The position numbers and the translations under genes are program-made. DNA of 64,000 nt from Bacteroidota bacterium. GTDB lineage: Bacteria > Bacteroidota > Ignavibacteria > Kryptoniales > JAKASW01. The DNA lies in NCBI GenBank assembly GCA_023480735.1, contig JAMCXB010000011.1:30169-94168 (forward strand). Reading direction: 5' to 3'. Under the pieces are notes generated by a model. The model searched no databases and had not been told where the DNA came from. It saw only the letters and a program-made list of their open reading frames with translations. Numbering within the stretch: position 1 is the first letter of the stretch; every line of letters begins with the position of its first letter. Of this stretch, positions 32,273 to 57,271 are shown in pieces.

Positions 32273-32273
32273 T

Positions 32274-34830: not shown

Positions 34831-34834
34831 TTTG

Positions 34835-38832: not shown

Positions 38833-38836
38833 ACCA

Positions 38837-39034: not shown

Positions 39035-39035
39035 G

Positions 39036-39518: not shown

Positions 39519-39546
39519 GAAATCAGGAGGCTGAGGTGAAATAGTC

Positions 39547-39627: not shown

Positions 39628-39645
39628 TTAAATAGTATTTTTTTC

Positions 39646-39674
39646 TTGACATTTAATTTTCTTTTCCTTATGTT
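39646..39674 (+). promoter_or_regulatory. Candidate promoter of the rightward (lysis/head/tail) operon
   Basis: TTGACA (39646-39651), 17 nt, then TATGTT (39669-39674). The TATGTTTT stretch also resembles the Bacteroidota-type TAnnTTTG -7 element. Confidence 0.4.
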
Positions 39675-39860: not shown

Positions 39861-39887
39861 TTTATTAATGTCAGGAACGAACTAGGT

Positions 39888-40595: not shown

Positions 40596-40861
40596 GTGTG
40601 GATCAGCGCACGATCAATTTAGGGCGGAAGGTTGAGTTAGAGGATAGAATTAAAGCCCTCTCACTTCGGATTCATTCAGAAGTGCAAACATTGAAAGATC
40701 TCTTCGAGCCGCGCACAATGGACTTGTCATACATCAAGGACGTCGACCCGGACCGCGTGAGGGTTTATTCGGTTGACATTGCGAAAAACGTGAAGAAGTA
40801 CAAACTACTCCTCGAGGAAATAAAGGCGCTGAAACGCGAGCTAGGAATAGAGGAGGAATAA
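40592..40861 (+). CDS. Hypothetical coiled-coil protein in the lysis cassette
   Basis: 89-aa ORF that overlaps the endolysin stop. Confidence 0.3.
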   Translation: MSVDQRTINLGRKVELEDRIKALSLRIHSEVQTLKDLFEPRTMDLSYIKDVDPDRVRVYSVDIAKNVKKYKLLLEEIKALKRELGIEEE

Positions 40862-40862
40862 G

Positions 40863-41123
40863 GTGTCGGTCAAGGGTTATGTCGTTACGAATGCGAGTTT
40901 AGTTGCTGCGATATTCGCGACGTCCTTGGACCCGCAGCTCAAGGCGCTGGCGTTTGCGGTGATTGCGGTTGTTTCGCTCATCGCAAACCTGTTATGGATC
41001 GGCGAAAAATTCAGAGAAGCAATAATCAGGAGATTGATGCGTGACGTGGAGGACGAGATTATTAGACTCGATTATCTGAGACATCCGACTGCGAAGGTTG
41101 ATGTGCCCAAGGATAAGAAGTGA
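40863..41123 (+). CDS. Holin-like two-TM small membrane protein
   Basis: 86 aa with two hydrophobic segments ('ASLVAAIFATSL', 'ALAFAVIAVVSLIANLLWI') and a charged C-terminus, next to the endolysin. Confidence 0.35.
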   Translation: MSVKGYVVTNASLVAAIFATSLDPQLKALAFAVIAVVSLIANLLWIGEKFREAIIRRLMRDVEDEIIRLDYLRHPTAKVDVPKDKK

Positions 41124-41202
41124 ATTATTCTAACCCCATAACGAAGTGGCTCCGGCGTGGTACGATGGCTAGCGAACTCCGTACCACGCCGTCCCGAGTA
41201 AT

Positions 41203-41242
41203 CCCTCACCTGAATCCTCTCCCCGATAGAATTGGGGCGAGG
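41203..41242 (+). repeat. Prophage hairpin repeat R11 (intergenic, upstream of gpI)
   Basis: ccctcacctgaatcctctcccc-gatagaatt-ggggcgagg (one stem mismatch). Confidence 0.65.
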
Positions 41243-41253
41243 CCACGAAAGAG

Positions 41254-42711
41254 TTGCGGAGGTTTGTAGTGGCTTTGAAAGTAAATCAAAAGGCGGTCGA
41301 ACATCTGAGATCTCTGGTCAGCCAGGGAAAAGTCGATCGGAATTCTAACTGGAGTTTTTCAGCCGAGGATGGCAATGCCCTCCTTGGCGCGGCCGGCAGC
41401 GACTGGTCAAACTATTCCCAAAATCACTTAGCGGTAGATACCAGTGCTGCCGAGAATACTAAGGCGCGTTTCCATTATCCGGCGGGCAAGGACGGAAAGG
41501 TCTATCGTAGCGGAGTTATCGCGGCGAAGCAGAGAGCGGCGGCGCAGGGCGAGAAAGATATAGAGAACGCCGCGGACGATCTACTGCAGTTGATAGATCG
41601 CAAAGCGCAGAGCGCAAAGGGTGAAGTGAAAGCGAAGAGAGTGGTCTTCTGCCAGGTAGATTTAGGAGTAATAGCGGGAGACGAATTGCCGACCCGGATT
41701 AACCTCCTTCCGCTCGGCGAATGGAAGGGTTACCCTTCGGTTGATCAGAGTGGTAAACCCGTACTACTTTCTTTCAAAGTCACCCCGGATCGCGTAAAGC
41801 AAGCCATCGCTTACCTAAAGAGACTCAGGTCACGAAATTCAAACCTCGATCTCGTGATCGACAATGACCACTTAACTCACGCGGACACCTATGCGCCTGC
41901 CTTCGGTTGGATCAAAGATCTAATTGACGCGGGCGAGAAAGGACTGGACGCGGTGGTCGAGTGGACGGCGCTGGGTGCGGAAGCGTTGAAGAATAAACTC
42001 TACAGGTATATCTCGCCCGTGCTGGCGTTCGACCTGCCGGACAGCGCGACGGGAGAGATAATTCCCTTTGCCGTGACCGATGCGGGACTGACTAATCAAC
42101 CGTTTATAGAGTCTTTGCCTGCGGTAATGGCAAAGAAGATAATTGAAACAACAAACAACGCCCCGATGGGGCAAGGAGAAATCAAGATGGACAAAATCTT
42201 AGCACTGCTTCAGACGTGGCTTAAGCTCCCCGATGCGGCGACGCCGGACGAGGTGGCTACCGGTCTCGAGGCAAAACTAAAAGAAGAGAACGCCGAACCA
42301 GACGAGGTGCAGGCAAAGAAATTGCTTACCGTTATCGGCTTTGATGAGGGCACTACCGTTGAACAGGCCAAGGCCACCGTCATCATGGCAAAGCAGCACC
42401 AGAGCCAAACATTGAACGTCGCCCAGGAGCTGGCCGCGATGAAGGCCGCACAGCTCGAGCGGGACGTCAATGAATTAGTTGACGGTGCGATCCGCGAGGG
42501 GAAGGTGTTCCCTGTGAACCGCGAAGACTTCGTGGTGATGGCGAAAAAAGACTTCGCGGGGATCAAGACGTTCCTGTCCAAGGCGCCCGTCGTAGGTCCA
42601 TTGAATCCGATGCCGGCCGGCCGGGAGAGCGGCGGAGTAAAGGCTCCGAGCGACACCGACAAGGAGGTCGCGGCGGCGCTCGGCATAGATGCGGCGAAGA
42701 TGGTGGAATAA
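41254..42711 (+). CDS. Mu gpI-like head protease / scaffold protein
   Basis: 'INLLPLGEWKGYP', 'DLVIDNDHLTHADTYAPAFGWIKDL' and 'YISPVLAF' fit the Mu-like prophage I protein family. The Ala/Glu-rich C-terminal half is scaffold-like. Confidence 0.7.
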   Translation: MRRFVVALKVNQKAVEHLRSLVSQGKVDRNSNWSFSAEDGNALLGAAGSDWSNYSQNHLAVDTSAAENTKARFHYPAGKDGKVYRSGVIAAKQRAAAQGEKDIENAADDLLQLIDRKAQSAKGEVKAKRVVFCQVDLGVIAGDELPTRINLLPLGEWKGYPSVDQSGKPVLLSFKVTPDRVKQAIAYLKRLRSRNSNLDLVIDNDHLTHADTYAPAFGWIKDLIDAGEKGLDAVVEWTALGAEALKNKLYRYISPVLAFDLPDSATGEIIPFAVTDAGLTNQPFIESLPAVMAKKIIETTNNAPMGQGEIKMDKILALLQTWLKLPDAATPDEVATGLEAKLKEENAEPDEVQAKKLLTVIGFDEGTTVEQAKATVIMAKQHQSQTLNVAQELAAMKAAQLERDVNELVDGAIREGKVFPVNREDFVVMAKKDFAGIKTFLSKAPVVGPLNPMPAGRESGGVKAPSDTDKEVAAALGIDAAKMVE

Positions 42712-42712
42712 A

Positions 42713-42744
42713 CTCACCTGAATCCTCTCCTCGAAGAGGAGAGG
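42713..42744 (+). repeat. Prophage hairpin repeat R12 (starts 2 nt after the gpI stop)
   Basis: ctcacctgaatcctctcctc-gaa-gaggagagg. Confidence 0.75.
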
Positions 42745-42791
42745 CCACGTAGAGATGAGATGTTTGGAATATTAAAAGGAGGATGAAGTAA

Positions 42792-43208
42792 ATGGCAGCA
42801 GCAACACAAGGACGCGACACGACAGCCCGAAACCTATTCGGTCTCTTGCCGATGGCCGTCGCGGCGGCGAAACACATTTTTGCAGGCACACAAGTCGTAA
42901 AGAACGCGGCCGGATATGCAGAGCCGGCAACTACAGCGCTGGCTAAGGTCGCGCTCGGACGCGCGAAGCATGAGGTTGATAACACGCTCGGCGCAGACGG
43001 CGACCTGTCGATCACCGTGGAAGAAGGCGAGTTCAAGTTTGACAATTCCGCGGCGGCCGACGCGATCACGATTGCCGACATCGGCAGCCCCTGCTACGCG
43101 GTTGACGACCAGACCGTCGCAAAAACCGACGGCGTAGGTACGCGCTCGAAAGCGGGAATCGTGACCGGCGTCGATAGCGACGGCGTCTGGGTGAAGATGG
43201 GTCTCTAA
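42792..43208 (+). CDS. Putative head decoration / DUF2190-like protein
   Basis: 138 aa, located between the protease-scaffold and major capsid genes. 'IFAGTQVVKNAAGYAEPA' and 'KAGIVTGVDSDGVWVKMG' fit the beta-rich DUF2190 pattern. Confidence 0.3.
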   Translation: MAAATQGRDTTARNLFGLLPMAVAAAKHIFAGTQVVKNAAGYAEPATTALAKVALGRAKHEVDNTLGADGDLSITVEEGEFKFDNSAAADAITIADIGSPCYAVDDQTVAKTDGVGTRSKAGIVTGVDSDGVWVKMGL

Positions 43209-43212
43209 CATT

Positions 43213-43246
43213 CCCTCACCCCGATCCTCTCCCTTAAGGGAGAGGG
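43213..43246 (+). repeat. Prophage hairpin repeat R13 (4 nt after the stop of 42792-43208)
   Basis: ccctcaccccgatcctctccc-ttaa-gggagaggg. Confidence 0.75.
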
Positions 43247-43278
43247 AGTGTGGCGGAGGAACTATTCAACTTTAAAAA

Positions 43279-44289
43279 GTGAGGATGAAAGTGATTAAGA
43301 AAAGCTTAAAAGTAGTTATCGGGCTGGCGCTACTCGTCGGCACGATAGCGATTGTTAATTCGTGGACTGCCGCCTCTGGTATCAGTATGGCGCTGTTGAT
43401 CGGGCCGTCGACATCCGACTCGCTCTATCGCGGGTTCAAGGTAATTTTTAATGATGCGTTCAATAAAGCGCAGCCGAGTTATAATCGGATTGCGATGACG
43501 ATCCCGTCGAACACTAAGCAGGAAACCTATGCGTGGCTCGGCGCATTTCCGCGAATGAAAGAATGGATCGGGCCACGGAACGTCAAGAACTTAGCCGCGT
43601 CCGATTGGACAATTAAGAACAAGAAGTTCGAGGTCACGATCGAGATACCATCCGAGGACATCGAAGACGACACCTATAACCTGTTCAACCCCATGATCGG
43701 CGGAATGGGTATGAGTGCCAGGATGCATCCGGATGAGCTTGTGTTCTCGCTGCTCAATGCCGGCTTTACGCAGAAATGCTACGACGGCAAGAATTTCTTC
43801 GATACCACTCACGCGTTCGGCTCGAACAAGAGCACAAAAATATTAAACGCGACCTACTACGGGGCGGCACTTGCAGCGATTGGGCGCATTAAAGATTCGA
43901 CAGGCAATCCACTTTTTAACGGATCCGAAAAGCTTACACTCGTGACCGGGCCTGAACTGGAAGAAACCGCAAAGCAAATGTTGAATGCCGACTTTATTTC
44001 CGTTGGCGGCGGGTCGACGCAGAATAACGTCTGGAAGGGCACCGCGGATTACCTGAAGAGTCCGCAGGTCACCAGCCCGACAGCGTGGTTCATTATCGTG
44101 GACTTTATGGGATTGCGTCCGCTGATCTTTCAAGAACGGAAGGCACCGAGATTTATTACGAAGAATAACCCGCAGGATTCCGACTACGTATTTATGAACG
44201 ATAAATACGTTTACGGCGTAGATTCGCGGGACAACGCCGGCTACGGGCTGCCGCAATTGGCCTACGGTTCCGACGGAACGGTGGCGTGA
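43279..44289 (+). CDS. Major capsid protein (Mu gpT family)
   Basis: 'ETYAWLGAFPRMKEWIGPRNVKNLAASDWTIKNKKFEVTIEIPSEDIEDDTYNLF' matches the Mu-like gpT signature. The start is uncertain (43279, 43285 or 43387). Confidence 0.8.
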   Translation: MRMKVIKKSLKVVIGLALLVGTIAIVNSWTAASGISMALLIGPSTSDSLYRGFKVIFNDAFNKAQPSYNRIAMTIPSNTKQETYAWLGAFPRMKEWIGPRNVKNLAASDWTIKNKKFEVTIEIPSEDIEDDTYNLFNPMIGGMGMSARMHPDELVFSLLNAGFTQKCYDGKNFFDTTHAFGSNKSTKILNATYYGAALAAIGRIKDSTGNPLFNGSEKLTLVTGPELEETAKQMLNADFISVGGGSTQNNVWKGTADYLKSPQVTSPTAWFIIVDFMGLRPLIFQERKAPRFITKNNPQDSDYVFMNDKYVYGVDSRDNAGYGLPQLAYGSDGTVA

Positions 44290-44295
44290 TTAACT

Positions 44296-44326
44296 CGCAC
44301 TTAGTCCCTCTCCTTTTAGGGAGGGC
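44296..44326 (+). repeat. Prophage hairpin repeat R14 (degenerate, after the capsid stop)
   Basis: cgcacttagtccctctcc-tttta-gggaggg. Confidence 0.5.
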
Positions 44327-44352
44327 GAATTTGTTCTACCTGACAGCGGCGA

Positions 44353-44427
44353 CCTCAGCCCTGACCCCTCTTCAACCTCACCTAAATCCTCTCCTAAGCG
44401 GAGAGGACATGATGGCGGGAGAGGGGA
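44353..44427 (+). repeat. Prophage hairpin repeat R15 (extra partial head plus the long subfamily copy)
   Basis: cctcagccctgacccctcttcaa + cctcacctaaatcctctcc-taagc-ggagagg-acatgatggcgggagagggga. Confidence 0.7.
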
Positions 44428-44445
44428 ACGGGGCGGAGGTGGATT

Positions 44446-44898
44446 ATGTATAGTACCTACGCAGACATCGCCGTTAAGCGGATTTCGTTGGCTGACTTAC
44501 AGCAACTGCTCTGCGACGACCCGGCGAATCCATTCACCGATGTGCAGCTTCAAGCGGCTGTCGAAGCACTGATACCCGACGCTGATTCGATGATCGACAG
44601 TTACGCGACAAGATGGTACGTCGTCCCGATGGACCCGATTCCGGCGATAGTAAAAAAGTCCAGCGCAGACATGGTGTGTCACTCGATCTACCAGCGGCGC
44701 CCGTTTCTTTTCGAAGGCGCTGCAAAGACCTGGGCGGATGCCTACACCGCGGCAATGTCGTGGCTGAAGGACATTGCGGCGGGTAAGGCTATAATCGAGG
44801 GCGCGTCGCGGAAACTCCCGGCGACCACTCCGAATTCAGGAGGTGTCGTTATATCGACCGATCCGACGTTCACTAAAGACAGTTTGAAAGGGCTTTGA
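44446..44898 (+). CDS. Mu gp36-like head-tail connector protein (DUF1320)
   Basis: 'YADIAVKRISLADLQQLLCDD...AVEALIPDADSMIDSYATRWYVVPM' follows the DUF1320 pattern. Confidence 0.55.
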   Translation: MYSTYADIAVKRISLADLQQLLCDDPANPFTDVQLQAAVEALIPDADSMIDSYATRWYVVPMDPIPAIVKKSSADMVCHSIYQRRPFLFEGAAKTWADAYTAAMSWLKDIAAGKAIIEGASRKLPATTPNSGGVVISTDPTFTKDSLKGL

Positions 44899-44937
44899 GA
44901 ATGGCGCAAAACGCAAAGGGCATAGCGCGGGGGACCG

Positions 44938-45468
44938 ATGCCGGCTGATCCATTAATGGAGGTGAACGGCAGACTGGCGGCGATACTGCAAAATGCGGTG
45001 AATCTACGGCCGCTGTATGAGGAGATCGGGATGTTCTTAGTTGGCGTCGTTCGACAGAACTTCATCGCCCAGGGACGACCGGAGAGATGGGCGGCGTCAG
45101 TGCGCGCGAAGGTAACTGGCGGCCAGACGCTTAGGGACACTGGAGCTTTAATGAACTCTATTGTTTCTGAATCAACAGACAAAGGCGTCAATGTCGGGCC
45201 GAGCGGTCCGGCGGGAAAGTATGCAGCCGTGATGGGTGAAGGCGCAACGATTACGGCGAAGAACGCGCCCTACCTCACATTCCGCATGCCTATAGGGATG
45301 CGCAGAACGAACAAGACTGGTAAAGATCTGAAGAAACCGGCGGCAAGTTACGGCTGGTTTCGTGTCAAAAGTGTTACGATCCCCGCAAGGCCGTACCTCT
45401 ATATTCCACCGGCCGAGGAAGATAAGGTGGCACAGATTGCCGCAGACTTTTTGCGAGGCGAAAAGTGA
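44938..45468 (+). CDS. Phage virion morphogenesis protein (Mu G-like)
   Basis: 'LRPLYEEIGMFLVGVVRQNFIAQGRPERW...GQTLRDTGALMNSI...VGPSGPAGKYAAVM' follows the Mu G / tail-completion family pattern. Confidence 0.55.
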   Translation: MPADPLMEVNGRLAAILQNAVNLRPLYEEIGMFLVGVVRQNFIAQGRPERWAASVRAKVTGGQTLRDTGALMNSIVSESTDKGVNVGPSGPAGKYAAVMGEGATITAKNAPYLTFRMPIGMRRTNKTGKDLKKPAASYGWFRVKSVTIPARPYLYIPPAEEDKVAQIAADFLRGEK

Positions 45469-45896
45469 TCAACCTCTCGCTGCCCGAAGACGCGATCATA
45501 GGCGCAATTAAAACCGCGGCGCCGTACGCGCGAACCGTGGATACACACGCAGGTCAAATTGATGCATCCGTGTTCGCCGGTGCGGATGGGTTAATTACCC
45601 TCGCTCCGTTCGCGCTTATTGAGTTTAGCAGAATTGAACCTGTCGTGGTTGACAATGAGGGCGCGGTCATCAGGGCTAACCTGGAGTTTAACGTGTTCGT
45701 CGGGGACAGGAGCCTGCGCTCGGCGAAAGAGGCGAGTCGTGGAGCTTACGGTCTTATCAACGATATAGACGCCGCGCTTAACGGTAAAATGCTCGGCGGA
45801 TACAATGTTGGGCTTACGGGCTTAACGATAATTTTGCATCAACGTGGTATTGTTATCTATCAGGCGACATACAGTCTTTTTTCAGTTTTAATTTAA
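45465..45896 (+). CDS. Mu gp37-like protein (DUF1834-like)
   Basis: Called from its position after the G-like gene and from 'ANLEFNVFVGDRSLRSAKEASRGAYGLINDIDAALNG'. Confidence 0.4.
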   Translation: MINLSLPEDAIIGAIKTAAPYARTVDTHAGQIDASVFAGADGLITLAPFALIEFSRIEPVVVDNEGAVIRANLEFNVFVGDRSLRSAKEASRGAYGLINDIDAALNGKMLGGYNVGLTGLTIILHQRGIVIYQATYSLFSVLI

Positions 45897-45908
45897 CAGG
45901 AGAATAAT

Positions 45909-46385
45909 ATGGGACTCGACAAAACAAAAGTATACGCGGACATCTATGAGGTATTTATCGCGGCACGCGTATCACCAGACACGCAGGTGGCGCAGCCTAC
46001 GCAAGCGACTCTCGACGCGTACGGTGACGCGACGTGGAAACATGTCGGGATGATGGCGGAGAAAAGCCCCTCAGGCGGCTCGACGCCGAACACGAATGTC
46101 CTGCATGATGGTACAGCGAAACAACTGAATCAGGTGTGGAAGCTTCAGCTTGACGCCGTCCAGACCGACGCAGCTAACATCACCTTACTCGAATCATTTC
46201 TGGATACCTACAATGATGCGATTTTCCGAGTCCGCGGCAGCAGCCGGGCGTATCGGTTCGACCGATGTTCCGTGACGACTTCGTACAAACACGGCGATTC
46301 CAAGACCGCAAACGCGGTCACTGTGACGTTCGAGAAGATCTCGAAGAATATCTCCGACGGACGGACAGAAATAACACTCGTTTAA
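45909..46385 (+). CDS. Putative major tail (tube) protein
   Basis: 158 aa with a strong RBS (AGGAGA). It sits after the head-tail joining genes and before the chaperone and tape measure genes. It is a paralogue of the N-terminus of the DGR target. Confidence 0.45.
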   Translation: MGLDKTKVYADIYEVFIAARVSPDTQVAQPTQATLDAYGDATWKHVGMMAEKSPSGGSTPNTNVLHDGTAKQLNQVWKLQLDAVQTDAANITLLESFLDTYNDAIFRVRGSSRAYRFDRCSVTTSYKHGDSKTANAVTVTFEKISKNISDGRTEITLV

Positions 46386-46395
46386 GGAGGTTAAC

Positions 46396-46683
46396 ATGAC
46401 TGACACAGAGTATACGCTTCTCGGTAAGTTGACGGAAGCGGAGGCAGAGGCGTCGCAATTAGAAGGCAAACTCCGCAGCGACGCGGAGGAACTTAAAACG
46501 GCCATTGAATCCACCCAAGCGGCATTCTTCACGGATAATCCGAGTGGGATCGGAAACATGGCGGCAACCTTGGTATCAAATATCGCCGTCCTGCAAACAG
46601 CGAGGACGTCCGCGGCGACGTTGCGGGCGCAACTTTATCCGCCACCGGCCGACCCCACGGCGGCAACGACTGGAGTAGTGTGA
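46396..46683 (+). CDS. Hypothetical coiled-coil tail-module protein
   Basis: 95-aa ORF following AAGGAGG. Confidence 0.3.
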   Translation: MTDTEYTLLGKLTEAEAEASQLEGKLRSDAEELKTAIESTQAAFFTDNPSGIGNMAATLVSNIAVLQTARTSAATLRAQLYPPPADPTAATTGVV

Positions 46684-46684
46684 C

Positions 46685-48124
46685 ATGATTTCGCGACAAA
46701 AGGTTTTTTCGGGACGTATAAAAAAGGTAATTATCCACGACCCGAGTTCACCAGGCACGCAGATCGAACTTGGCGCACTTGCGGACACACAGACGATCAC
46801 GGCTGAGAGCGACGGAGTTTTGTTTCACGATGGCACCGCAAAGCAAGTGCAGGCGCGGGTGAACGCGCAACTCAAGCTACTGCAGACCTCAGCCGGTGAT
46901 GTTACAAACTACGAGACCCTACAAGGTAAAGGGTGCGACATACTTATCGCCGGGGAAGAGAAAAATCTTGCGTTTTATGACGTGGACTTCACCTTAAAGC
47001 ACGACGCAGGTAATTCGAAGGATGCCAGCGCGGTAACGTTATCGTTCAGCGTTGCCACAAGGAAGGTTTCTGACGCCGCAGGAATTGTCTCGACTCTCAT
47101 CGCCGACAAGGACGGCAATTTAAACGAGATGGTATTCATCCCTCAATTCAACTGGGATCCAACGAACGGGTTCGCCTCAACGATAATTCATCCCGCATTT
47201 GTGGTCGATGGCAAGAGAATCGCGGGCTTCTACGTCGGAAAATATCAAGCGTGCTTGGTCGATGCTCTTGGGGTCATCCAAAACCCGGTCACGGCGCGGA
47301 ACACCGATGCACTCATTACGGCTTCGGGGCTTCGCGCGTTCTCGCGAAGACTGGTCGAACCGCAGGTCAATATCGACTTCGATAGAGCGCGCCTAGCTTG
47401 CTCGCAAATGAATGGTGGAAACGTAAGCGGCTATCATTTAGTAACAAACGCCGAATGGGCGGCCGTGGCGTTGTGGTTCAAACAAAATATTACAACCCCA
47501 CCGCGCGGGAATAACAATAATAATTTCGGTGATTCGGATGATGGTACGGTTATCGGGACTGCGGCGCTAAACTCCGACGCCGGGAAGCGCTGGCTGACCG
47601 GCAGTGGTGGAAACGCGACGGCACACAACAGGCGAAGCTCTGGGATATTCGACCTGAACGGCAACGTCTGGGAATGGTGCGACGGGATAAAATTGGTGGA
47701 CGGTAAGATTCTCGTGGCGGGCAACAAAAATCTCGCGCCGACTGACGGCGGCAACGGCTTCGGAATAACCGAGGCCAACTATTACGATACGGGATGGTGG
47801 TACAACTGGGACGGCGTGTCCGCGGCACCTACACTGAGTAATGTTGGTGCTGGCACAGCTGGTGTAAAGGATTGTGCATTCGGCGACATGGCGGGCGGCG
47901 GAAGTGACCTGATTAAGAAGTTGACGCTCGGTCCACTCGCGGGAGGAGCGGCTGCTTACACGAACGACCATTTTTGGGTGAATAATTCTGGCGAGCGGAT
48001 TCCGATCCGCGGTGGCGCCTGGGGCGTTGGGTCCAGCGCCGGTTTGTTCGCGCTGTACCTGAGGGATCCGCGCTCCGGCGTGGACTACAGCATCGGTTTC
48101 CGTCCCGCTTTTATACGGACATAA
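46685..48124 (+). CDS. DGR target protein: tube-protein-like N-terminal domain plus C-terminal FGE-sulfatase / C-type-lectin-fold domain carrying the VR
   Basis: 'GYHLVTNAEWAAVALW', 'GNVWEWCDG' and the C-terminal '...RGGAWGVGSSAGLFALYLRDPRSGVDYSIGFRPA' have CLec/FGE-type architecture. The last ~37 codons are the VR. Confidence 0.85.
   Translation: MISRQKVFSGRIKKVIIHDPSSPGTQIELGALADTQTITAESDGVLFHDGTAKQVQARVNAQLKLLQTSAGDVTNYETLQGKGCDILIAGEEKNLAFYDVDFTLKHDAGNSKDASAVTLSFSVATRKVSDAAGIVSTLIADKDGNLNEMVFIPQFNWDPTNGFASTIIHPAFVVDGKRIAGFYVGKYQACLVDALGVIQNPVTARNTDALITASGLRAFSRRLVEPQVNIDFDRARLACSQMNGGNVSGYHLVTNAEWAAVALWFKQNITTPPRGNNNNNFGDSDDGTVIGTAALNSDAGKRWLTGSGGNATAHNRRSSGIFDLNGNVWEWCDGIKLVDGKILVAGNKNLAPTDGGNGFGITEANYYDTGWWYNWDGVSAAPTLSNVGAGTAGVKDCAFGDMAGGGSDLIKKLTLGPLAGGAAAYTNDHFWVNNSGERIPIRGGAWGVGSSAGLFALYLRDPRSGVDYSIGFRPAFIRT
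47999..48109 (+). repeat. DGR variable repeat (VR)
   Basis: It aligns without gaps to 48367-48477 over 111 nt. I count 15 mismatches, 14 of them opposite TR adenines. Confidence 0.9.
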
Positions 48125-48132
48125 AACACTCG

Positions 48133-48351
48133 ATGCTCACCTTACTGCAACTCATAGTCCGTGCGAACAAGAGTCGATCTAAGTCGCAGTTTTTCGACGC
48201 GATCGACGTTGAATTAGATACACTACGGATTCTTGTCCGCCTTTCAATGCAACTAAAATTCTTGTCATTCAAAAAATACGAAGTCTGGTCGCAATATCTT
48301 GTCGAAATCGGCAAGATGCACGGCGGCTGGATTAAAAGTGTAAAGGGATAG
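48133..48351 (+). CDS. avd: Avd-like accessory variability determinant, unusually short (72 aa)
   Basis: It occupies the position between VR and TR. The helical, basic protein ends 'YLVEIGKMHGGWIKSVKG' and resembles the C-terminal half of four-helix-bundle Avd proteins. Confidence 0.5.
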   Translation: MLTLLQLIVRANKSRSKSQFFDAIDVELDTLRILVRLSMQLKFLSFKKYEVWSQYLVEIGKMHGGWIKSVKG

Positions 48352-48366
48352 AGTCGTATGTGGCAG

Positions 48367-48477
48367 ATTCCGATCCGCGGTGGCAACTGGGACAATGGGT
48401 CCAACGCCGGTTTGTTCGCGCTGAACCTGAATAATCCGCGCTCCAACGTGAACAACAACATCGGTTTCCGTCCCGCT
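48367..48477 (+). repeat. DGR template repeat (TR)
   Basis: It is rich in AAC/AAT (aac tgg gac aat ggg tcc aac ... aac ctg aat aat ... aac gtg aac aac aac) and is the invariant counterpart of the VR. ORF 48358-48630 over it is not considered coding. Confidence 0.9.
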
Positions 48478-48622
48478 CTCGATTTTGCCAGATGCCGTCA
48501 ACTCATCGGGTTGGCGGCCAGTGCATTTACAAAAGGGATTCTATTCCTCTCCGAAAGGAGAAATAGTCCGACTTGGGCTGGCCTCTTACGGGTCCCGAAA
48601 GGGATTGGTCGGAGGCGATACT
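48478..48622 (+). ncRNA. DGR spacer RNA region between TR and RT (part of the TR-containing template/primer RNA)
   Basis: 145-nt segment between the TR and the RT start codon, with hairpins such as CTATTCCTCTCC-gaaa-GGAGAAATAG. This position corresponds to the Sp region of characterised DGR RNAs. Confidence 0.4.
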
Positions 48623-49600
48623 GTGTTTAAACAGATTTATAGCTTCGAAAATCTTTATGACGCATACAAGAAGGCTTCACGAAACAAACGTTATGAATTA
48701 GAAGCCTTAAGGTTTAGGCAGAACTTAGAGGAGAACTTAATCGTAATTCAGAATGAACTTATTTGGAAAAAGTGGACGCCGAGGGCGTTCACATCCTTCT
48801 TCGTCTGCGACCCCAAGAAGCGTCTTGTAATGGCTCCAGCTTTCCGGGACCGAGTGGCGCATCACGCGCTTTGTAATATAATCGAGCCTCTGTTCGAGAG
48901 GCGTTTTATATTCGACAGTTATGCTTGTCGTGTAGGTAAGGGAACGCATGCGGCTGTTCGCCGCGCCTCGCAAATGGCAATCCGCGATGGGTATGTTCTG
49001 AAGGCCGACATATCAAAATATTTTCCATCCGTGAGTAACGAGGTTTTAATGGGTGTGATCAGGCAGACAGTCAATAATTCGGACACGCTCTGGCTTATCG
49101 AGCGCATCTTGGCGATAACAGAAGGACTTCCTATTGGTGCACTTACGTCGCAATTATTCGCAAATGTGTATTTAGATCAACTCGATCACTATTTAAAGGA
49201 TGAATTAGGAGTGAAACGTTACGTAAGGTATATGGACGACTTTGTAATCTTTCACGAAGACAAAAATTATCTACGCGAATTGCTCGAGATCATCCGTGAC
49301 TTCTTGTTGACTAAGTTGAAATTATCGTTTAACCACAAGACCCAGATATTACCCTCCCGGCACGGGCTGGATTTTTGCGGTTACAGATTATTTGAAACAC
49401 ATATAAAGATGAGGAAGAGAAATGTGAGGCGGGCAAAAAATAGATTTAAGCAACTCAGTGCAGACTACGCCAACGGTGCAATTTCCTTGGCGCAAGTTAG
49501 GTCGTGCGCGATGTCTTTTCTCGGCTATGCCGGCCACACGAACGAAAAGCGGAGCGTAGAAAGCACACTTAATCGCTTGAACCTTGCAACCGGAGAATAA
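48623..49600 (+). CDS. DGR reverse transcriptase
   Basis: GTG at 48623 follows GGAGG. It has 'FRDRVAHHAL', 'LKADISKYFPSV', 'LPIGALTSQLFANVYL' (DGR-type SQ motif) and 'YVRYMDDFVIF' (YxDD box). Confidence 0.9.
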   Translation: MFKQIYSFENLYDAYKKASRNKRYELEALRFRQNLEENLIVIQNELIWKKWTPRAFTSFFVCDPKKRLVMAPAFRDRVAHHALCNIIEPLFERRFIFDSYACRVGKGTHAAVRRASQMAIRDGYVLKADISKYFPSVSNEVLMGVIRQTVNNSDTLWLIERILAITEGLPIGALTSQLFANVYLDQLDHYLKDELGVKRYVRYMDDFVIFHEDKNYLRELLEIIRDFLLTKLKLSFNHKTQILPSRHGLDFCGYRLFETHIKMRKRNVRRAKNRFKQLSADYANGAISLAQVRSCAMSFLGYAGHTNEKRSVESTLNRLNLATGE

Positions 49601-49601
49601 T

Positions 49602-50126
49602 GTGGAAGAAGACCAAAAAAAATACGCGATCGGACGTAGAAAGTATACCCTTGGAAAACTAACGTGGGCACAGTACAAGGCTATCCGCAAGATCGGAAAG
49701 TTGATACAATTACCGCTTGAAGCAACCGTCTCCGATAGTGAGCACGTGATTGCGGTGGCGCTCAATGTCATGGACGTGATCGTTCAAAAGGACGTCGTCG
49801 CGGAGCTGCTCGCTGCCATTTTGTCGCGGCAAGGAAGTGATTGGAAGCCACTGCCGAAGTGGTTAGCGAGACGGCGGTTTGCAAAAATCAAAGAGGATAC
49901 CCTCGCGGAGATTCTGAAGGATTTTTTTACGCAAAGTCCATCCGCGACGCTTACGTTGATGGCCTCTTCAAAGAACTTAGCGCCGCTGATGCAAAGTATG
50001 ATGACGACCTTGAGTCAGAGTTCAATCGCATCGGGCGTCCAAGACCCGATGAATTCTACCGCCCCGACATCGACGCAGACGAGCTCCTCGAAATCAGAAT
50101 CGCAGACGGCAAGCCAAGCGAAATAA
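49602..50126 (+). CDS. Tail assembly chaperone (lambda gpG analogue)
   Basis: It lies immediately upstream of the tape measure gene. GTG at 49602 follows GGAG. It contains the T7 slippery run leading into the overlapping -1 ORF. Confidence 0.5.
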   Translation: MEEDQKKYAIGRRKYTLGKLTWAQYKAIRKIGKLIQLPLEATVSDSEHVIAVALNVMDVIVQKDVVAELLAAILSRQGSDWKPLPKWLARRRFAKIKEDTLAEILKDFFTQSPSATLTLMASSKNLAPLMQSMMTTLSQSSIASGVQDPMNSTAPTSTQTSSSKSESQTASQAK

Positions 50127-50248
50127 GTAGACTACAAACTATGTACGTTCTTGACGTTTTTAAACTCGCATACATCCAGAGAGTCGATGCGTTGAACGCA
50201 AAAATAAATCTCGTCAACGACCTAAAGAACATTCCCGACCCGCAATGA
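49841..50248 (+). CDS. -1 frame extension of the tail assembly chaperone (gpT-like part of the GT fusion)
   Basis: The overlapping ORF is in the -1 frame relative to 49602-50126 and ends 4 nt into the tape measure gene. It has the canonical G/GT arrangement. Confidence 0.45.
   Translation: MEATAEVVSETAVCKNQRGYPRGDSEGFFYAKSIRDAYVDGLFKELSAADAKYDDDLESEFNRIGRPRPDEFYRPDIDADELLEIRIADGKPSEISRLQTMYVLDVFKLAYIQRVDALNAKINLVNDLKNIPDPQ
49922..49928 (+). other. Slippery heptamer T TTT TTT for the -1 frameshift (G to GT product)
   Basis: The zero frame reads gaT TTT TTT acg (..KDFFTQ..). The -1 frame reads ttt ttt tac gca aag (..FFYAKSIRDAY..) and stays open to 50248. Confidence 0.5.
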
Positions 50249-52746
50249 GTGACAAAGACTATAAATTAATTTTCTCGATCGACTTGGCGCCTTACGTCGA
50301 TGGACTGAAGGCAATGTTAAACATGACCCGCGAGGCATCGCAGCAACTCTCGGGTCTCCTCAGTCTGAAAATAACCACTCCGAACTTCTCGGGCATCGAT
50401 GCCGAGCTGCAGCGCGTCACGCAAACGACCGACGCATACATCGCTAGCCAGCAGGGTGCTGCGGCGGCAAGTCAAAAGACAGCCGAGAGCGAGGCGCAGG
50501 TCGAGAAGTCCTCGGTCGCGATGGCGGGTGGGATGAAGACAGCACAAGTATCGACGACGGGCTTCCGCGAAGCGAGCGAGGCGCTGTTCTTCAGACTAAG
50601 TGCATTAAGCATCGGTATGCAGGCGCTAAAGGGGACGTTTGGGGAATGGATACAAAAATCTAACGAGGCAACAGCGGCGGAGAGTGCCTACGCACAGGCA
50701 CTGAAGAACCGGGGAATATATACCGAGGAGGCGGTCAAAGACGCAAAAGAGTTTGCCGACCAACTGCAGAATTTAACCGGAGCCGACAACGACGTCGTAC
50801 TCAAGACCATGGCACAGTTGGCGGCGATGGGATTGCAGGGCGAGAAACTTAAAGAGGCCACGAAGTTGACGGCGGACCTTTCGATTTTAATGGGCCGCGA
50901 CATGGCGGGCGCAGCGCGTGTCATGGCGGATGCGTTCAACGGCAACACCGGTATGCTGGGGCGCTACATAAAGGGATTAGACGAGGCCGATATAAAGCAG
51001 CGCGGTGCGGTGTCCATCATTGAGCAGGTAAGGAGAGCGGTCGGTGGGCAGGGCGAAGCATTCGGGAGGGACACAGCGGGGCAACTCGAGATATATAAGC
51101 GTCAGGTTGATGACACGCAGAAGGTTTTAGGCAGGCTCCTCACCGAAGGGATCGTCCCGATCACGAACGCCGCGAAGCCATTTCTCCAGGCATTTCAGGA
51201 TGCCCCGGAACCGATTCGAGACACCGCCGCGGCGGTCGGGTTGCTCGGTATCGGCATCGGAGTTTTGAAGATCGGCATGGGTGTAGATATTCCCGCAGCC
51301 GCAGCCAGGGCTGCCGCGGCTCTCTATACAACGCTCATCCCCGCGGTGGAAGCGGCAGGGACGGCAGTTGTTGTTGCGACGGGCGGTTTATCTCTCATCG
51401 CGGGGGAACTTGTTTATTTAGCTAAAATTATTTATGACACATTTGAATTGAGATCGAAGGCAGCTAAGGCGGAGCTTGCCTCGGACGCTAAGTCTATCGC
51501 AGACACCTACGCTGCGGAGATCGACCGGATCTCGAAGTTACCACCGGCGAAAGCAAAGGTCGAATGGGTTTGGGAGATGCAAGATCTCGACAAGCAGATC
51601 GCTGCGGTACAAGAGCGCATACACACTTTAAATGCGAAGGGCGTGACGAGCGGGAAGGATATAGATGAGCTCAAGACGAAACTAAAAGCGTTAATCGACG
51701 CATACGAAAACCTCAAGAAGCTGCCTGCCACAATCGCCGAGAACGAGAAGAAGGCGGCGAAGGCGCAATTAGAAAATCTTGACAACCTAATCACAACGGA
51801 CACCGCGTACCGGCAGAAGCTCGATGAGATCAACGCCGCACTAAAAATCACGACGCTCTCGGAGCGTGAGCGGAACGAACTCCTGAAGCAGCGTGCGGAC
51901 ATCGAGGCGAAATTAGCGGGTCCGGAGAAGTACAAGCCATTCCAGGGCAAAGCTGAAGTAGCGCCTTTAACAATCACGACGCCGGATCTGTCGGCAAAAC
52001 TCGAAGAGGCTGGAATGTCCATTGCGGACGAGGAGGCAAAAATCGCGTCCATCGAGGACGCCTACCGGAATGCGAAAACGGACAAAGAGCGTGCGGCGGC
52101 ATACGAACAACTGCAGATCGAAAAGCAAAAGCTTGATGCGATCGAATCGATGCAGAGGCAGCACGACCAGGATTACGACAACTGGAGGCGGATAAAAGAG
52201 GAGGCGTGGAATGCAGCGGAACGGGCGGGAGCGGGCGCGACGGCGGGTTATTTTGTGAGAGCTTTTGATGAGGCGTGGACGAAAGCATTCGGGCAGGCAC
52301 ATTCGCTGCTGCAAAGATTTTTGCATGATGTTCTGTCCGCACTGGTACAAATCGCTGCGCAGGAAGCCGCTATGGCGGTGTTTGGATTTATTGCTAATCT
52401 AGCGACCGGAGGTGCGTACAGCGCAGGAGCGAACTTACTGTCGACGGTCTCACATCTCGGTTTACCTGCCCACGCTGAGGGCGGAATAACGACGAAACCC
52501 CACGTTGCGTTCGTTGGTGAAGTGCCGGAAGTGATAATGCCGCTGTCGAAACTGCCAGTATACATGCCTATGTTTGCCAACAGGGATGATTCCGCGATAA
52601 TCGGACGGCTAGACAGACTCGAGAGGGCGATACTTGGACTGCCTGCGCCGGTTGTGGAGCTGCATAATCACGCCGAGTTTAATGAGGTCGCGTTCCGGAC
52701 CAAAATAGTGGAATACAAACGAGGGGAGCAACGGCGTGTCGGCTAA
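50245..52746 (+). CDS. Tail tape measure protein
   Basis: 833 aa, Ala-rich and helical. 'LQNLTGADNDVVLKTMAQLAAMGLQGEKLKEATKLTADLSILMGRDMAGAARVMADAFNG' is a TMP core motif. It also has TM-like Gly/Ala segments. Confidence 0.85.
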   Translation: MSDKDYKLIFSIDLAPYVDGLKAMLNMTREASQQLSGLLSLKITTPNFSGIDAELQRVTQTTDAYIASQQGAAAASQKTAESEAQVEKSSVAMAGGMKTAQVSTTGFREASEALFFRLSALSIGMQALKGTFGEWIQKSNEATAAESAYAQALKNRGIYTEEAVKDAKEFADQLQNLTGADNDVVLKTMAQLAAMGLQGEKLKEATKLTADLSILMGRDMAGAARVMADAFNGNTGMLGRYIKGLDEADIKQRGAVSIIEQVRRAVGGQGEAFGRDTAGQLEIYKRQVDDTQKVLGRLLTEGIVPITNAAKPFLQAFQDAPEPIRDTAAAVGLLGIGIGVLKIGMGVDIPAAAARAAAALYTTLIPAVEAAGTAVVVATGGLSLIAGELVYLAKIIYDTFELRSKAAKAELASDAKSIADTYAAEIDRISKLPPAKAKVEWVWEMQDLDKQIAAVQERIHTLNAKGVTSGKDIDELKTKLKALIDAYENLKKLPATIAENEKKAAKAQLENLDNLITTDTAYRQKLDEINAALKITTLSERERNELLKQRADIEAKLAGPEKYKPFQGKAEVAPLTITTPDLSAKLEEAGMSIADEEAKIASIEDAYRNAKTDKERAAAYEQLQIEKQKLDAIESMQRQHDQDYDNWRRIKEEAWNAAERAGAGATAGYFVRAFDEAWTKAFGQAHSLLQRFLHDVLSALVQIAAQEAAMAVFGFIANLATGGAYSAGANLLSTVSHLGLPAHAEGGITTKPHVAFVGEVPEVIMPLSKLPVYMPMFANRDDSAIIGRLDRLERAILGLPAPVVELHNHAEFNEVAFRTKIVEYKRGEQRRVG

Positions 52747-53932
52747 GAGACAGATTGTCGCCTACAGTGTTGACAGCAATGCGCCCGAGCAAATAGATTT
52801 TACGTCCGAGCTCGCCGAGGTGGGTTGGGCGGAGTTGCAGGTCGAACGTGACCAATACGAGTTCTCTGGCGGCGACGCCAAATTTACCGTTAAGGATGAT
52901 CATGGGCTTTACGGCTTGTTGAAGGATCGGCGGCAACTGAAGGTAGATGTTATCTTCGACGATAATCTAATTTACAGAGGGGTGGCGTACGCGGACCAGA
53001 CCACGTGGGACCCGGCTGCTCAAAAGTATATGTTCAATTCATACCAACTGACGAAGCCGTTCCGAGACGCGGCAAAGAAGCAGCTCGTCAACGTCGGCGC
53101 GCTCAATTTACAAAGCGTCCTCGTTAATTCTGGACTTGTCTCGTCGGTTCTTGGCAACCTGAAGGACGCCCCACTTATCATCAAGCAGGATTTTACAAAG
53201 CAAGATGGCACGACGTTGAAGAATGGCAGCTTGACGGACTTTGCGAAAGAGTATAACTATTCGGTTTATGATTTTCTTCTCGACGCAATGAAATACAATT
53301 CGGGTGCGTACTGGATCGATAACGAAGGCGTCCTTCACGTTGGGCGTCGGTATGTCGTCAACACGTACACGTCGGGATTGGACGATCGCATCGTTGAATA
53401 TAAAGAAACGTTGAGAGAGAGTAGCTTCGATTGGATTACAGTCTCGGTGAATGACGGCGGATCTTTCTACTCCGCGATCGCGCTCGGACGGCAGGGTGAG
53501 CTTTGGTATCGTATATACACAATTATCGCCACGTCTGGCGTGCGGCTGCGAGATTTTGGTGAGACACGATATGGCGCGGGGTGGATGCGGCAATTTGTCT
53601 GGAAGGACAGTAAGAGCCGTAACATCATGGCATCACTTCAGGGCAATATATTGAACGTCGACGCGCCGAGCGTATATCCGCAAGGCGGAGTACTCTTCTT
53701 CCCGATGCGTAGCACGAAGGAAGCGGTCGATAACCTGTCGCCGATTCTGGCAACCGCGACACAGAAGCGGGTGAAGCTCAGTGAGATCATCCAACTGAAT
53801 CCGCTTGACGGCATCGTACTCCGCGGCACGAATAACGTCATAACCGGAGTACTTTACAACCTCGCCGAGGAGTCGACGACGGTGACGCTCGAGGATTTCA
53901 ACACGACGCAATACCCGAACCCGTTTGGATGA
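52736..53932 (+). CDS. Putative distal tail protein
   Basis: It is the first ORF after the tape measure and overlaps its stop. Confidence 0.35.
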   Translation: MSAKRQIVAYSVDSNAPEQIDFTSELAEVGWAELQVERDQYEFSGGDAKFTVKDDHGLYGLLKDRRQLKVDVIFDDNLIYRGVAYADQTTWDPAAQKYMFNSYQLTKPFRDAAKKQLVNVGALNLQSVLVNSGLVSSVLGNLKDAPLIIKQDFTKQDGTTLKNGSLTDFAKEYNYSVYDFLLDAMKYNSGAYWIDNEGVLHVGRRYVVNTYTSGLDDRIVEYKETLRESSFDWITVSVNDGGSFYSAIALGRQGELWYRIYTIIATSGVRLRDFGETRYGAGWMRQFVWKDSKSRNIMASLQGNILNVDAPSVYPQGGVLFFPMRSTKEAVDNLSPILATATQKRVKLSEIIQLNPLDGIVLRGTNNVITGVLYNLAEESTTVTLEDFNTTQYPNPFG

Positions 53933-54882
53933 TCATGGGCCAGCCGAAAGTTACATATAACCTGATGGGACAGGGTTTCACGTTAAGCTTCGAGTCCTTA
54001 CATTATTCGAGTCTCAAACAGGGTTGGAAGCCGGATATTGTCGAGTTCACGAATCCGTTTAATGGCAAAAAAACACGCAATCGGCGCGGGTGGTACTATC
54101 ATGCAGAGATTTTTTACGAGGCGATAAAGGACACGGACTTCTTGTTACTTAGAGATTTATTCAACAAAAACACAACAAATACTGTCTTCTACCCGGACGA
54201 CATTGAGGTTAGAAAGTTTCCGTGCGACGTACAAGTGGTCGGGTTGGACTTTGAGGACTTGTATCCCGATCACGAAAAAGGCGTAAGGATCACTTTCGAT
54301 TCACTAGATCGTTATGATTCCGCGCTTGACTATCCGACCAATTATTGGGGATGCAGAACTTTACGTTTCCAGGACGATGTCACGTGGAGCGGGCATAAGG
54401 ACGCACTGAACCTGGCGGACTCAAACGATCTCGCGTCCTTTAACACCCTTAACACAAACTTCGGAAACCATCTTGCGGCGGCGAATCCGCATGGAGCGAC
54501 CTACTACACAAAAGCGGAAGTCGATTCGTTGATAGTTAGCAAGATTAAGTATGCCCCGATTGTCCTCGCGGCGAATCTGACCGGGGCGGGAGATTTCTTT
54601 AATAGTCAGGGCGGATTTATAACCTACACGATCACCGGTTGCGACAAGCCGATTCCGCGAGATGGGTCATTGGTCGCGCTCACAAGTCGTGTCGGCACGG
54701 TCTTGCAATCAGACGCCCTGAATATAAGTGTTAAAGCGGGAGACCGACTTGCGGCGTTCAGCATCTACGACACCGCGCTCAGAATATACATCCTCGTGAA
54801 TAAAGTCCAGGCATACAAACAAACCGTTGCGGGCGCGACAGTACCCAACCTAGCTGTGCTTATGATCGATCTAAAACTGTGA
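53929..54882 (+). CDS. Tail tip/baseplate-associated protein
   Basis: Called by position. It shares the motif 'H..TYYTKAEVD' with the next ORF. Confidence 0.3.
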   Translation: MIMGQPKVTYNLMGQGFTLSFESLHYSSLKQGWKPDIVEFTNPFNGKKTRNRRGWYYHAEIFYEAIKDTDFLLLRDLFNKNTTNTVFYPDDIEVRKFPCDVQVVGLDFEDLYPDHEKGVRITFDSLDRYDSALDYPTNYWGCRTLRFQDDVTWSGHKDALNLADSNDLASFNTLNTNFGNHLAAANPHGATYYTKAEVDSLIVSKIKYAPIVLAANLTGAGDFFNSQGGFITYTITGCDKPIPRDGSLVALTSRVGTVLQSDALNISVKAGDRLAAFSIYDTALRIYILVNKVQAYKQTVAGATVPNLAVLMIDLKL

Positions 54883-54883
54883 G

Positions 54884-55438
54884 GTGTTTATGGCAATAAT
54901 TATTCAAACCGTTAGCCCCGAAGACCTAATTGATCAGGGACGCACGAAATTCAACTCGAACGACACCGCTGTGGCGAACGCGGTAACCGCCACGCAAACC
55001 CAATTGGACACGCATAACCATAACTCTATTTACTATACAAAACCTGAGGTGGATGCCAAAGTCAATCCGTCCGACCAAGGACAAAAGAAATCTTATATTG
55101 AGTTTGGTGTCAACGCTTCAAACCAGACTCTCGTAGCTGGAGTCGTTGTTGACACCATCCCGCTCGGACGTGCGGGCAGCGTGACGGGATTAAGGGCGGC
55201 GCATAGTAGTGGCAGTAAATACAATGTTGATTACGGTTACGGCATAAAGACATTTCTCGCGGGCGATTACCTAACATTATCGTTTAACAATACGATACCC
55301 GGGGACGAAGTGACTCCGTTGCAGTGGGGTTTTATACTCTCACTTGTACGCGGAGGTGTTACGCAGTCGCAGGTCATTGTCGTGACCAAAGAGAGCGCGG
55401 GGCCGTTTGCGGTCTCCGTTGAGTTAGAGTTCTCATGA
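54884..55438 (+). CDS. Tail fibre-associated protein
   Basis: Called by position. It has the motif 'HNHNSIYYTKPEVD'. Confidence 0.3.
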   Translation: MFMAIIIQTVSPEDLIDQGRTKFNSNDTAVANAVTATQTQLDTHNHNSIYYTKPEVDAKVNPSDQGQKKSYIEFGVNASNQTLVAGVVVDTIPLGRAGSVTGLRAAHSSGSKYNVDYGYGIKTFLAGDYLTLSFNNTIPGDEVTPLQWGFILSLVRGGVTQSQVIVVTKESAGPFAVSVELEFS

Positions 55439-57261: not shown

Positions 57262-57271
57262 GGACGGAAAG

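Follow-up and report, generated by a model that had tools for sequence, protein, structure and literature searches.

The window analysed here, 64,000 nucleotides of contig JAMCXB010000011.1 (assembly GCA_023480735.1), carries a diversity-generating retroelement (DGR) at 46685-49600 on the forward strand, in a region that by its gene content is the tail module of a Mu-like prophage. The element consists of a target gene that ends in a variable repeat (VR), an avd gene, a template repeat (TR) and a gene for a reverse transcriptase (RT). The VR bears the marks of past mutagenesis at adenines, while avd appears to have lost its 5' part by deletion. We put the probability at about 70% that this is an Avd-type DGR which diversified its target in the past and was then recently disabled by the avd deletion, so that it is now most likely inactive or severely crippled. 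A first-pass annotation of this DNA had described a complete, intact and historically active copy with the gene order of phage BPP-1 (target-avd-TR-RT). The order and the past activity are borne out, the latter by the adenine substitutions in the VR, whereas the completeness is not, since avd lacks its first 32-36 codons, a state unique among 85 loci.

Adenine mutagenesis in the variable repeat

The VR (47995-48109, + strand, core 47999-48109) forms the last 37 structured codons of the target gene, corresponding to residues 439-475 of 479, and the TR (48363-48477, + strand, core 48367-48477) contains 24 adenines and 10 AAY codons. A script comparison and a repeat finder both gave a gapless alignment of the two cores over 111 nt with 15 mismatches. 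Fourteen of these are at TR adenines and the remaining one is at T48432 of the TR, the third base of an AAT->AGG change, beside a substituted A. With 24 adenines in 111 nt, the hypergeometric probability of finding at least 14 of 15 mismatches on A is 1.3e-10. The numbers agree with those of the first-pass annotation, which had counted 15 differences, 14 of them at the 24 TR adenines; its 11 listed codon changes, including the one with the T mismatch, were each correct, and the adenine bias on which it had staked its interpretation is evident. In the target frame the A substitutions affect codon positions 1 or 2 only, and the changed codons are seven AAC, three AAT and one GAC. The last 19 nt of the two repeats (CATCGGTTTCCGTCCCGCT) are identical, again as first annotated. 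Homology reaches 4 nt further upstream (47995/48363), which adds one A->G change and brings the total to 16 mismatches, 15 of them at A. Changes at adenine positions separate 11 VR codons from their TR counterparts, so the element worked in the past.

The repeat parameters are typical of the 77 related DGRs used for comparison. The VR length of 112 nt compares with a median of 111, the number of VR/TR mismatches is 15 versus 11, and the number of TR adenines 24 versus 23. In the related elements 95.6% of the mismatches are at A, leaving a pooled non-A share of 4.4%. The TR could encode about 1.5e14 protein variants, none of which would bring in a stop codon. A second TR-like copy was not found in the 64-kb window. 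The homology of VR and TR stops at ...CCCGCT, just as it does in the closely related locus L005.

Target-site elements 3' of the VR have been described as a GC-rich initiation of mutagenic homing (IMH) element plus a 7-10-bp GC hairpin with a GRNA loop, located 4-34 bp downstream (PMC3240598). The VR in the window has the GC-rich 3' end, but no GC-rich GRNA hairpin was detected within 75 nt 3' of the VR. This hairpin is also missing in the closest RT relatives and in 42/65 related loci (it was seen in 23/65), and BPP-1 does not strictly need it (PMC12875486). Its absence is uninformative here because the nearest relatives lack it as well. Three of the related loci (L001, L005 and L008) have tandem ATCTGA-type short repeats in the spacer between target and avd instead of the hairpin. 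This spacer, repeat-bearing in several close RT relatives, is part of what is lost in the window.

Truncation of avd

The avd gene (48133-48351, + strand) was recognized by profile matches and encodes 72 amino acids that correspond to part of helix 2 and to helices 3 and 4 of the Avd fold. It matches Pfam bAvd over positions 37-107 of 107 (E 3e-17) and NCBIfam DivGenRetAVD over positions 37-104 of 104, with a score of 72.8 bits that is below the cutoff of 80. Against a hidden Markov model of 111 positions that was built from full-length relatives, the window sequence covers positions 33-110, with the alignment starting at 48112. In all 84 related loci with enough upstream sequence (84/84) Avd starts at profile position 1-6, versus position 33 in the window, and none of the other loci examined shares the truncation. 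When aligned with seven relatives, the window sequence lacks helix 1 as well as FPKSEKF, which is the motif best conserved in the family, and becomes homologous at ...DIKHS-MLTLLQLIVRANK; by tblastn the homology can be followed from 48118. The first-pass annotation had recognized a short avd. The gene is indeed short and its product is homologous to Avd, but it is a truncated gene and not a small variant, and the match to the Avd profiles is not full length.

The presumed deletion junction lies within 48110-48132, between the end of the VR/TR homology at 48109 and the point where Avd homology resumes, at 48112-48133. The stop codon of the target (48122-48124) is inside this stretch, and the TDIKHS sequence of the junction region matches Avd. 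In the 77 non-redundant relatives Avd position 1 comes at least +24 nt after the target stop (median 76), and the corresponding value for the window is -108 nt. This is most simply explained by a deletion of some 130-180 nt, which would have taken the intergenic region between target and avd together with the first 32-36 codons of avd.

The missing part was not recovered elsewhere. Between the avd open reading frame (ORF) and the preceding in-frame stop, near 47983, none of the codons is ATG, GTG or TTG, and the frame in this region is the VR read out of frame. Searches by tblastn with Avd N-termini detected no N-terminal Avd fragment and no second avd elsewhere in the 64-kb window. A hidden N-terminus upstream of 48133 was rejected after the three frames were read, which revealed neither a start codon nor homology. 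An 'FP...F..DIK' pattern in the out-of-frame VR resembles an Avd motif by coincidence, being encoded by the TR-templated GFRPA codons. A resemblance between the start of the avd remnant, MLTLLQ, and the sequence MELTLGDLQ of a gene on contig L184 was also discarded, because MLTLLQLIVRANK aligns without gaps to helix 2 of the Avd of several relatives. The 72 codons that remain contain no stops or frameshifts and conserved residues are kept.

In BPP-1 the reverse transcriptase bRT alone has no RT activity and Avd is needed for cDNA synthesis (PMC6182149), while nonsense mutations in avd cut retrohoming to about 1e-9 (PMC12875486). Since Avd is indispensable in this model system, the element in the window is probably inactive. 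A 72-aa protein in which one of the four bundled helices is missing would probably not assemble into the pentameric barrel, and for this reason too the element is considered probably disabled. The deletion looks recent, in that no other damage is seen in the avd remnant or the RT, and only 1 of the 15 mismatches is at a base other than A. Judged by its VR/TR statistics alone, this DGR would pass for a complete and active one, yet inspection of the genes shows an essential component to be broken, which calls for caution with automated DGR catalogues.

Reverse transcriptase and RNA elements around the template repeat

The RT gene (48623-49600, + strand, protein P0124) encodes 325 amino acids and is apparently intact, with no stops or frameshifts in its ORF. 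The presence of an RT downstream of the TR had been noted before, and the LPIGALTSQLFANVYL and YMDD sequences ascribed to it are both there, but its start is the GTG at 48623, preceded by a GGAGG Shine-Dalgarno sequence, and not the TTG at 48485 where the ORF begins. The best relative of known structure is BPP-1 bRT (PDB 8ub7, E 3e-59); group II intron RTs reach about 1e-19 and the retron Ec86 RT 6e-5. In annotated phages the top hits are all DGR RTs with 40-45% identity, from phages of Vibrio, Aeromonas and Pseudoalteromonas, Bacillus phage BalMu-1 and BPP-1. In an alignment of 17 sequences (the window and 16 relatives) the RT retains 58/58 invariant columns, including YMDD and the IGxLTSQ motif (here LPIGALTSQ). 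The best NCBIfam match is a group II RT/maturase model, at 139 bits far under its cutoff of 300; this is explained by the lack of a DGR RT model in NCBIfam. By sequence comparison, the RT belongs with the DGR RTs and not with group II intron or retron RTs, as the first-pass annotation had proposed.

The 145-nt spacer (Sp) RNA between TR and RT (48478-48622, + strand) falls in the length class of the BPP-1 Sp, which has 140 nt. The RT-Avd complex of BPP-1 depends on Sp together with some 20 nt from the 3' end of avd; Sp 59-70 pairs with the end of avd to form the 'cPRT stop', a short stem-loop (Sp 71-78) and two A-minor adenosines (A80/A81) come next, and Sp A56 acts as the primer (bioRxiv 10.1101/2023.10.23.563531; PMC6182149). 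The Avd-binding stem-loop of BPP-1 is formed by Sp 19-34 (PMC6182149). Counterparts of most of these elements can be recognized in the window. The sequence GGGAUAGAGUC, which spans the avd stop (48345-48355, + strand), is complementary in 11/11 positions to GAUUCUAUUCC at Sp 60-70 (48537-48547, + strand), and together they would close the TR as the analogue of the BPP-1 cPRT stop avd:Sp duplex. The stem-loop CUCC-GAAA-GGAG followed by AAAUAG (48549-48566, + strand) is the putative analogue of the Sp 71-78 stem-loop and A80/A81. The duplex is part of the minimum free energy (MFE) fold of the whole RNA, which has a z-score of -2.5 and also holds an 11-bp stem-loop at Sp 17-41 (48494-48518, + strand) and a long interrupted stem with a GAAA cap (48582-48615, + strand) that includes the Shine-Dalgarno sequence of the RT gene and would sequester its ribosome-binding site. 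By positional analogy these two are candidates for Avd binding and RT binding, respectively.

Related DGR loci were collected via the RT (88 loci), and 66 non-redundant ones were used to examine the avd:Sp duplex. At least 10/11 positions pair in 60/66 loci versus 16.5% of cross-locus controls, and in columns 4-11 of the duplex all four Watson-Crick pair types occur across the 66 loci, as expected from covariation. The duplex is at Sp 55-65 in nearly all related loci, and a stem-loop followed by an A-run recurs 3' of it. Such a nearly fixed and covarying duplex in about 60 distant phage DGRs supports a general RNA architecture of the BPP-1 type. Because the duplex covaries and its position in Sp matches BPP-1, the cis-acting RNA in the window is judged to be intact and of the BPP-1 type. 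For the template:primer duplex the indications here are suggestive: covarying helices were found in about 20 loci, the difference between own and cross-locus pairing is weak (5.74 versus 5.24 bp), and the pairing in the window is ambiguous. Neither a tRNA nor an Rfam family, intron RNA included, was detected in the 64-kb window.

Alternative explanations

Several observations weigh against a recently inactivated element. The deletion junction cannot be placed exactly within 48110-48132, and the end of the target in this stretch, AFIRT*, weakly resembles the AYIGNI* of the closest relatives. The intact state of the avd remnant and RT, together with the single non-A mismatch, implies either that the deletion is recent or that the short Avd is still selected. 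A full-length Avd could be provided in trans from elsewhere in the host genome. Some DGRs in nature have no recognizable Avd. A misassembly beside the repeat, treated below, would also undo the conclusion.

The alternative that survives best, even if it is clearly less probable than inactivation by deletion, is that the DGR is fully functional as it is, either with the 72-aa protein as a minimal Avd or with a full-length Avd acting in trans from another DGR in the same genome. A functional element would be consistent with the undamaged condition of the avd remnant, the RT and all RNA cis-elements, with a non-A divergence of 1/15 that is no higher than the pooled value of the relatives, and with the retention of the candidate Avd-binding stem-loop. 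However, an Avd this short occurs in 0/84 related loci, and the missing part takes in a whole helix of the four-helix bundle plus the most conserved motif of the family. Moreover, the protein scores under the NCBIfam equivalog cutoff, the 72-aa product is apparently not in the protein set of the source itself, and no second avd is present in the 64 kb. The specific case in which the 72-aa protein still activates the RT, as a working minimal Avd without helix 1 and part of helix 2 or by domain complementation, appears rather improbable. If true, helix 1 and the FPKSEKF motif would be dispensable.

We regard it as very unlikely that the truncation is an assembly or consensus artefact beside VR and TR and that the real genome has a full-length avd. 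The junction directly abuts the 111-nt repeat, where short-read assemblers can err, and no independent contig with the locus was retrieved. A collapse of VR and TR, however, would join the VR to sequence past the TR and would remove avd entirely, not just its 5' third. Past 48109, the sequences flanking the junction each occur only once in the window, and the target and RT proteins are each found on two contigs; the 90%-identity cluster of the target is a single sequence, on 2 contigs. There is hardly any chance that the repeat pair is not DGR-derived and reflects ordinary duplication and divergence, or that the RT is that of a group II intron, a retron or a defence system, as the group II model that tops the NCBIfam matches could suggest, against which stand the adenine bias, the far better match to bRT, the Avd homology, the TaqVP-type target, the DGR-type RNA duplex and the lack of intron RNA or any other Rfam family.

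Proposed mechanism and comparison with known systems

DGRs in temperate phages are common and the element class is not new. With its TaqVP-like target, Avd-type accessory gene and BPP-1-like RNA, the element is of a common kind and by analogy is expected to work like that of BPP-1. When it was active, a transcript that runs from the 3' end of avd through the TR and the 145-nt spacer would have folded by pairing of the avd-stop region with Sp 60-70. The RT-Avd complex would then prime cDNA synthesis from a spacer adenosine, copy the TR and misincorporate opposite adenines, after which the cDNA would replace the VR, i.e. the last 37 structured codons of the target. These steps are proposed on the basis of homology with BPP-1. 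The diversified protein would join an N-terminal domain paralogous to the neighbouring presumed major tail protein to a TaqVP-like lectin domain of which the VR forms the ligand-binding face.

The similarity to BPP-1 includes the order target-avd-TR-RT (mtd-avd-TR-brt in BPP-1), an RT that is 40% identical over 84% of its length, A-specific VR/TR differences that are concentrated in AAY codons, and a VR at the C-terminus of a C-type lectin. The similarity extends to an Sp of about 140 nt with an avd:Sp duplex around Sp 60-70, a short stem-loop and an A-run. The differences are that the Avd of the window lacks the N-terminal third, that the GC-rich GRNA hairpin 3' of the VR is missing, and that the target is TaqVP-like instead of Mtd-like and not homologous to the tail-fibre trimer. 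The phage is Mu-like, whereas BPP-1 is a podovirus.

Hankyphage, a temperate Mu-type transposable siphovirus of Bacteroides, also carries a DGR (PMC6199706, PMC12135933). The first-pass annotation had cited it as a transposable phage with such an element, which is correct, but the prophage in the window is not a close relative. Both are Mu-like temperate phages of hosts in the Fibrobacteres-Chlorobi-Bacteroidetes (FCB) group with a DGR that shows about 14 A mismatches in a repeat of about 115 nt (PMC6199706). The Hankyphage target has 2,225 amino acids and no assigned function, as compared to the TaqVP-like target of 479 amino acids in the window. There is no DNA similarity in the phage collection, and no annotated phage RT exceeds about 45% identity to the RT of the window. 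In addition, the host of Hankyphage is Bacteroides and not a Kryptoniota/Ignavibacteria-like organism, and in the window avd is truncated and the prophage rearranged.

The closest uncultivated relatives (L005-L009, contigs from IMG/VR and Logan) have RTs that are 60-62% identical. They share with the window the RT subclade, the TR core, the end of the VR/TR homology at ...CCCGCT, the avd-stop:Sp duplex, the target-avd-TR-RT order and the absence of a GC hairpin 3' of the VR. They differ in having an Avd of 109-111 aa and a target-avd spacer of 30-35 nt. Their cassette follows P2-like baseplate and tail-fibre genes on myovirus-type contigs, whereas in the window it lies between the tail-tube position and the tape-measure gene. 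The phage collection yielded no DNA match beyond the TR core of other DGRs, and the GTDB representative genomes no relative of the target. Exact look-ups of the avd and target proteins returned no matches, and an exact 57-mer of the window was absent from JGI metagenome contigs.

Target protein and its paralog in the tail module

The target (46685-48124, + strand, 479 aa) combines an N-terminal beta domain (residues ~1-130) with a TaqVP-like C-type-lectin domain that contains the VR. It matches the Pfam FGE-sulfatase family with E 9.6e-7. Residues ~126-479 match PDB 5VF4 by sequence with E 1.4e-27; this entry is TaqVP, the DGR variable protein of Thermus aquaticus. An AlphaFold2 model of the target (predicted local distance difference test, pLDDT, 78.9) was matched by Foldseek to TaqVP with E 4e-24 and a template modelling (TM) score of 0.72, while the matches to the other DGR variable proteins TvpA and Mtd were weaker (Mtd, E 2e-3). 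These sequence and model comparisons, together with the GNVWEWCDG sequence pointed out in the first-pass annotation, argue for the C-type-lectin/FGE-sulfatase-type fold of the C-terminal domain that had been proposed there. The VR is in the equivalent C-terminal segment as in TaqVP, ...GERIPIRGG.W..G..AG...L.L..PR.....IGFRPAF. Two differences from TaqVP are the extra N-terminal domain of about 125 residues, which is paralogous to a protein of the phage tail module, and the location of the gene on a phage, whereas TaqVP is chromosomal. TaqVP-like targets in phages were reportedly noted by Benler et al. in 2018.

The paralog of the N-terminal domain is a 158-aa protein encoded at 45909-46385 (+ strand), in the position of the major tail protein. 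It aligns with target residues 46-130 (BLASTP E 9e-12); the N-terminal domain of the target is encoded at 46685-47080. The gene follows the head-tail adaptor and tail-completion genes and precedes the tape-measure gene. Matches in Pfam, PHROG, the phage collection and PDB sequences were not found, even with a profile of 19 sequences; the family has 21 representatives at 50% clustering. A single-sequence AlphaFold2 model of the protein was unusable (pLDDT 41), and the tail-tube fold matches of the N-terminal domain of the target were weak (Foldseek probability 0.5-0.8, TM 0.38). In view of its position and of these weak fold hits of the paralogous domain, the 158-aa protein is probably the major tail (tube) protein. 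The combination of a TaqVP-like lectin with a domain paralogous to this presumed major tail protein, in a Mu-like phage of a poorly sampled FCB lineage, hints at display on the tail shaft or tip. We tentatively consider that the diversified lectin is carried on a paralog of the major tail protein, which would place the variable domain on or at the end of the tail shaft and not on a fibre, but this arrangement is doubtful.

The N-terminal domain of the target was found in two other loci only, L184 and L185, both with the same paralog pair and gene order. Between the 158-aa protein and the target the window encodes a 95-aa protein (46396-46683, + strand), homologous (E 2e-5) to the product of a 103-aa gene at the same position in L184. 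The L184 and L185 targets are 87% identical, with differences that are mildly denser in the region equivalent to the VR. They may be DGR targets with the cassette elsewhere; both contigs are short. In both, a gene that starts with MELTLGD and is not avd begins 8 nt after the target stop (L184 2150-2341, L185 1650-1826). Its full product is seen only in L184, for which there is downstream sequence.

Prophage and host context

The genes around the cassette place it, as first annotated, in the tail module of what is by gene content a Mu-like, siphovirus-type prophage. Upstream are the Mu-like major head protein gpT (43279-44289, + strand, Mu-like_gpT), a head-tail adaptor, a tail-completion protein and the 158-aa and 95-aa proteins. 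Downstream are two overlapping ORFs (49602-50126 and 49841-50248, + strand) and the tape-measure gene (50245-52746, + strand). The second ORF is in the -1 frame and stops where the tape-measure gene starts; the two resemble a tail assembly chaperone pair of the G/GT type, and a slippery site was not identified. Protease I is encoded at 41254-42711 (+ strand, Mu-like_Pro).

A second set of phage genes is on the opposite strand. They encode a MuA-type transposase (34835-36727, Mu-transpos_C), a MuB-type ATPase (33471-34571, AAA_22), TerL (26372-28069, phrog_38), a Mu portal protein (22419-23870, Portal_Mu) and a gpF-like protein (21466-22092, phrog_220). The prophage thus has two divergent arms, one at 21466-37714 (- strand) with MuA, MuB, TerL, portal and gpF, the other at 38053-57643 (+ strand) with lysis, protease I, gpT and tail genes. 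A colinear late operon is absent: the - strand has TerL, portal and gpF at 21.5-28.1 kb, and the + strand has protease, capsid and tail genes from 41.3 kb onwards. Wherever these genes were found among the capsid relatives (up to 9/15 loci), the order TerL-portal-gpF-protease-capsid is on one strand; the capsid relatives are at most 48% identical. Because the relatives are colinear while the arms in the window diverge, the prophage is concluded from gene order to carry a large inversion. Inverted repeats were not detected at the inversion breakpoints.

Directly downstream of TerL in the inverted arm is a PAPS-reductase-like gene (25494-26378, - strand, phrog_424, E 8e-34). A hairpin element resembling repetitive extragenic palindromic (REP) sequences, CCCTCACCC(Y)GNCCCTCTCC-loop-GGAGAGGG, is present in at least 8 copies versus 0 expected by chance. 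The copies are at 28073, 29255, 29516, 30134, 31016, 34489, 35840 and 43212, with hairpin-only versions at 31166, 43225 and 44306. They are all inside the prophage and have one absolute orientation despite the opposed gene directions of the two arms. Most are intergenic, for example just upstream of TerL and on either side of the capsid gene, and one is in the MuA ORF.

A flanking oxidoreductase is 80% identical to a protein of a Candidatus Kryptoniota metagenome-assembled genome (MAG) and 65% identical to one of an Ignavibacteriaceae MAG. This identifies the likely host as an FCB-group bacterium related to Kryptoniota and Ignavibacteria, in agreement with the FCB-group host suggested earlier. 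The host flank on the left encodes two large secreted proteins with type IX secretion system (T9SS) C-terminal sorting domains at 12332-14869 and 14931-17078, one with GHL10 and Golvesin_C domains and the other with RCC1 repeats.

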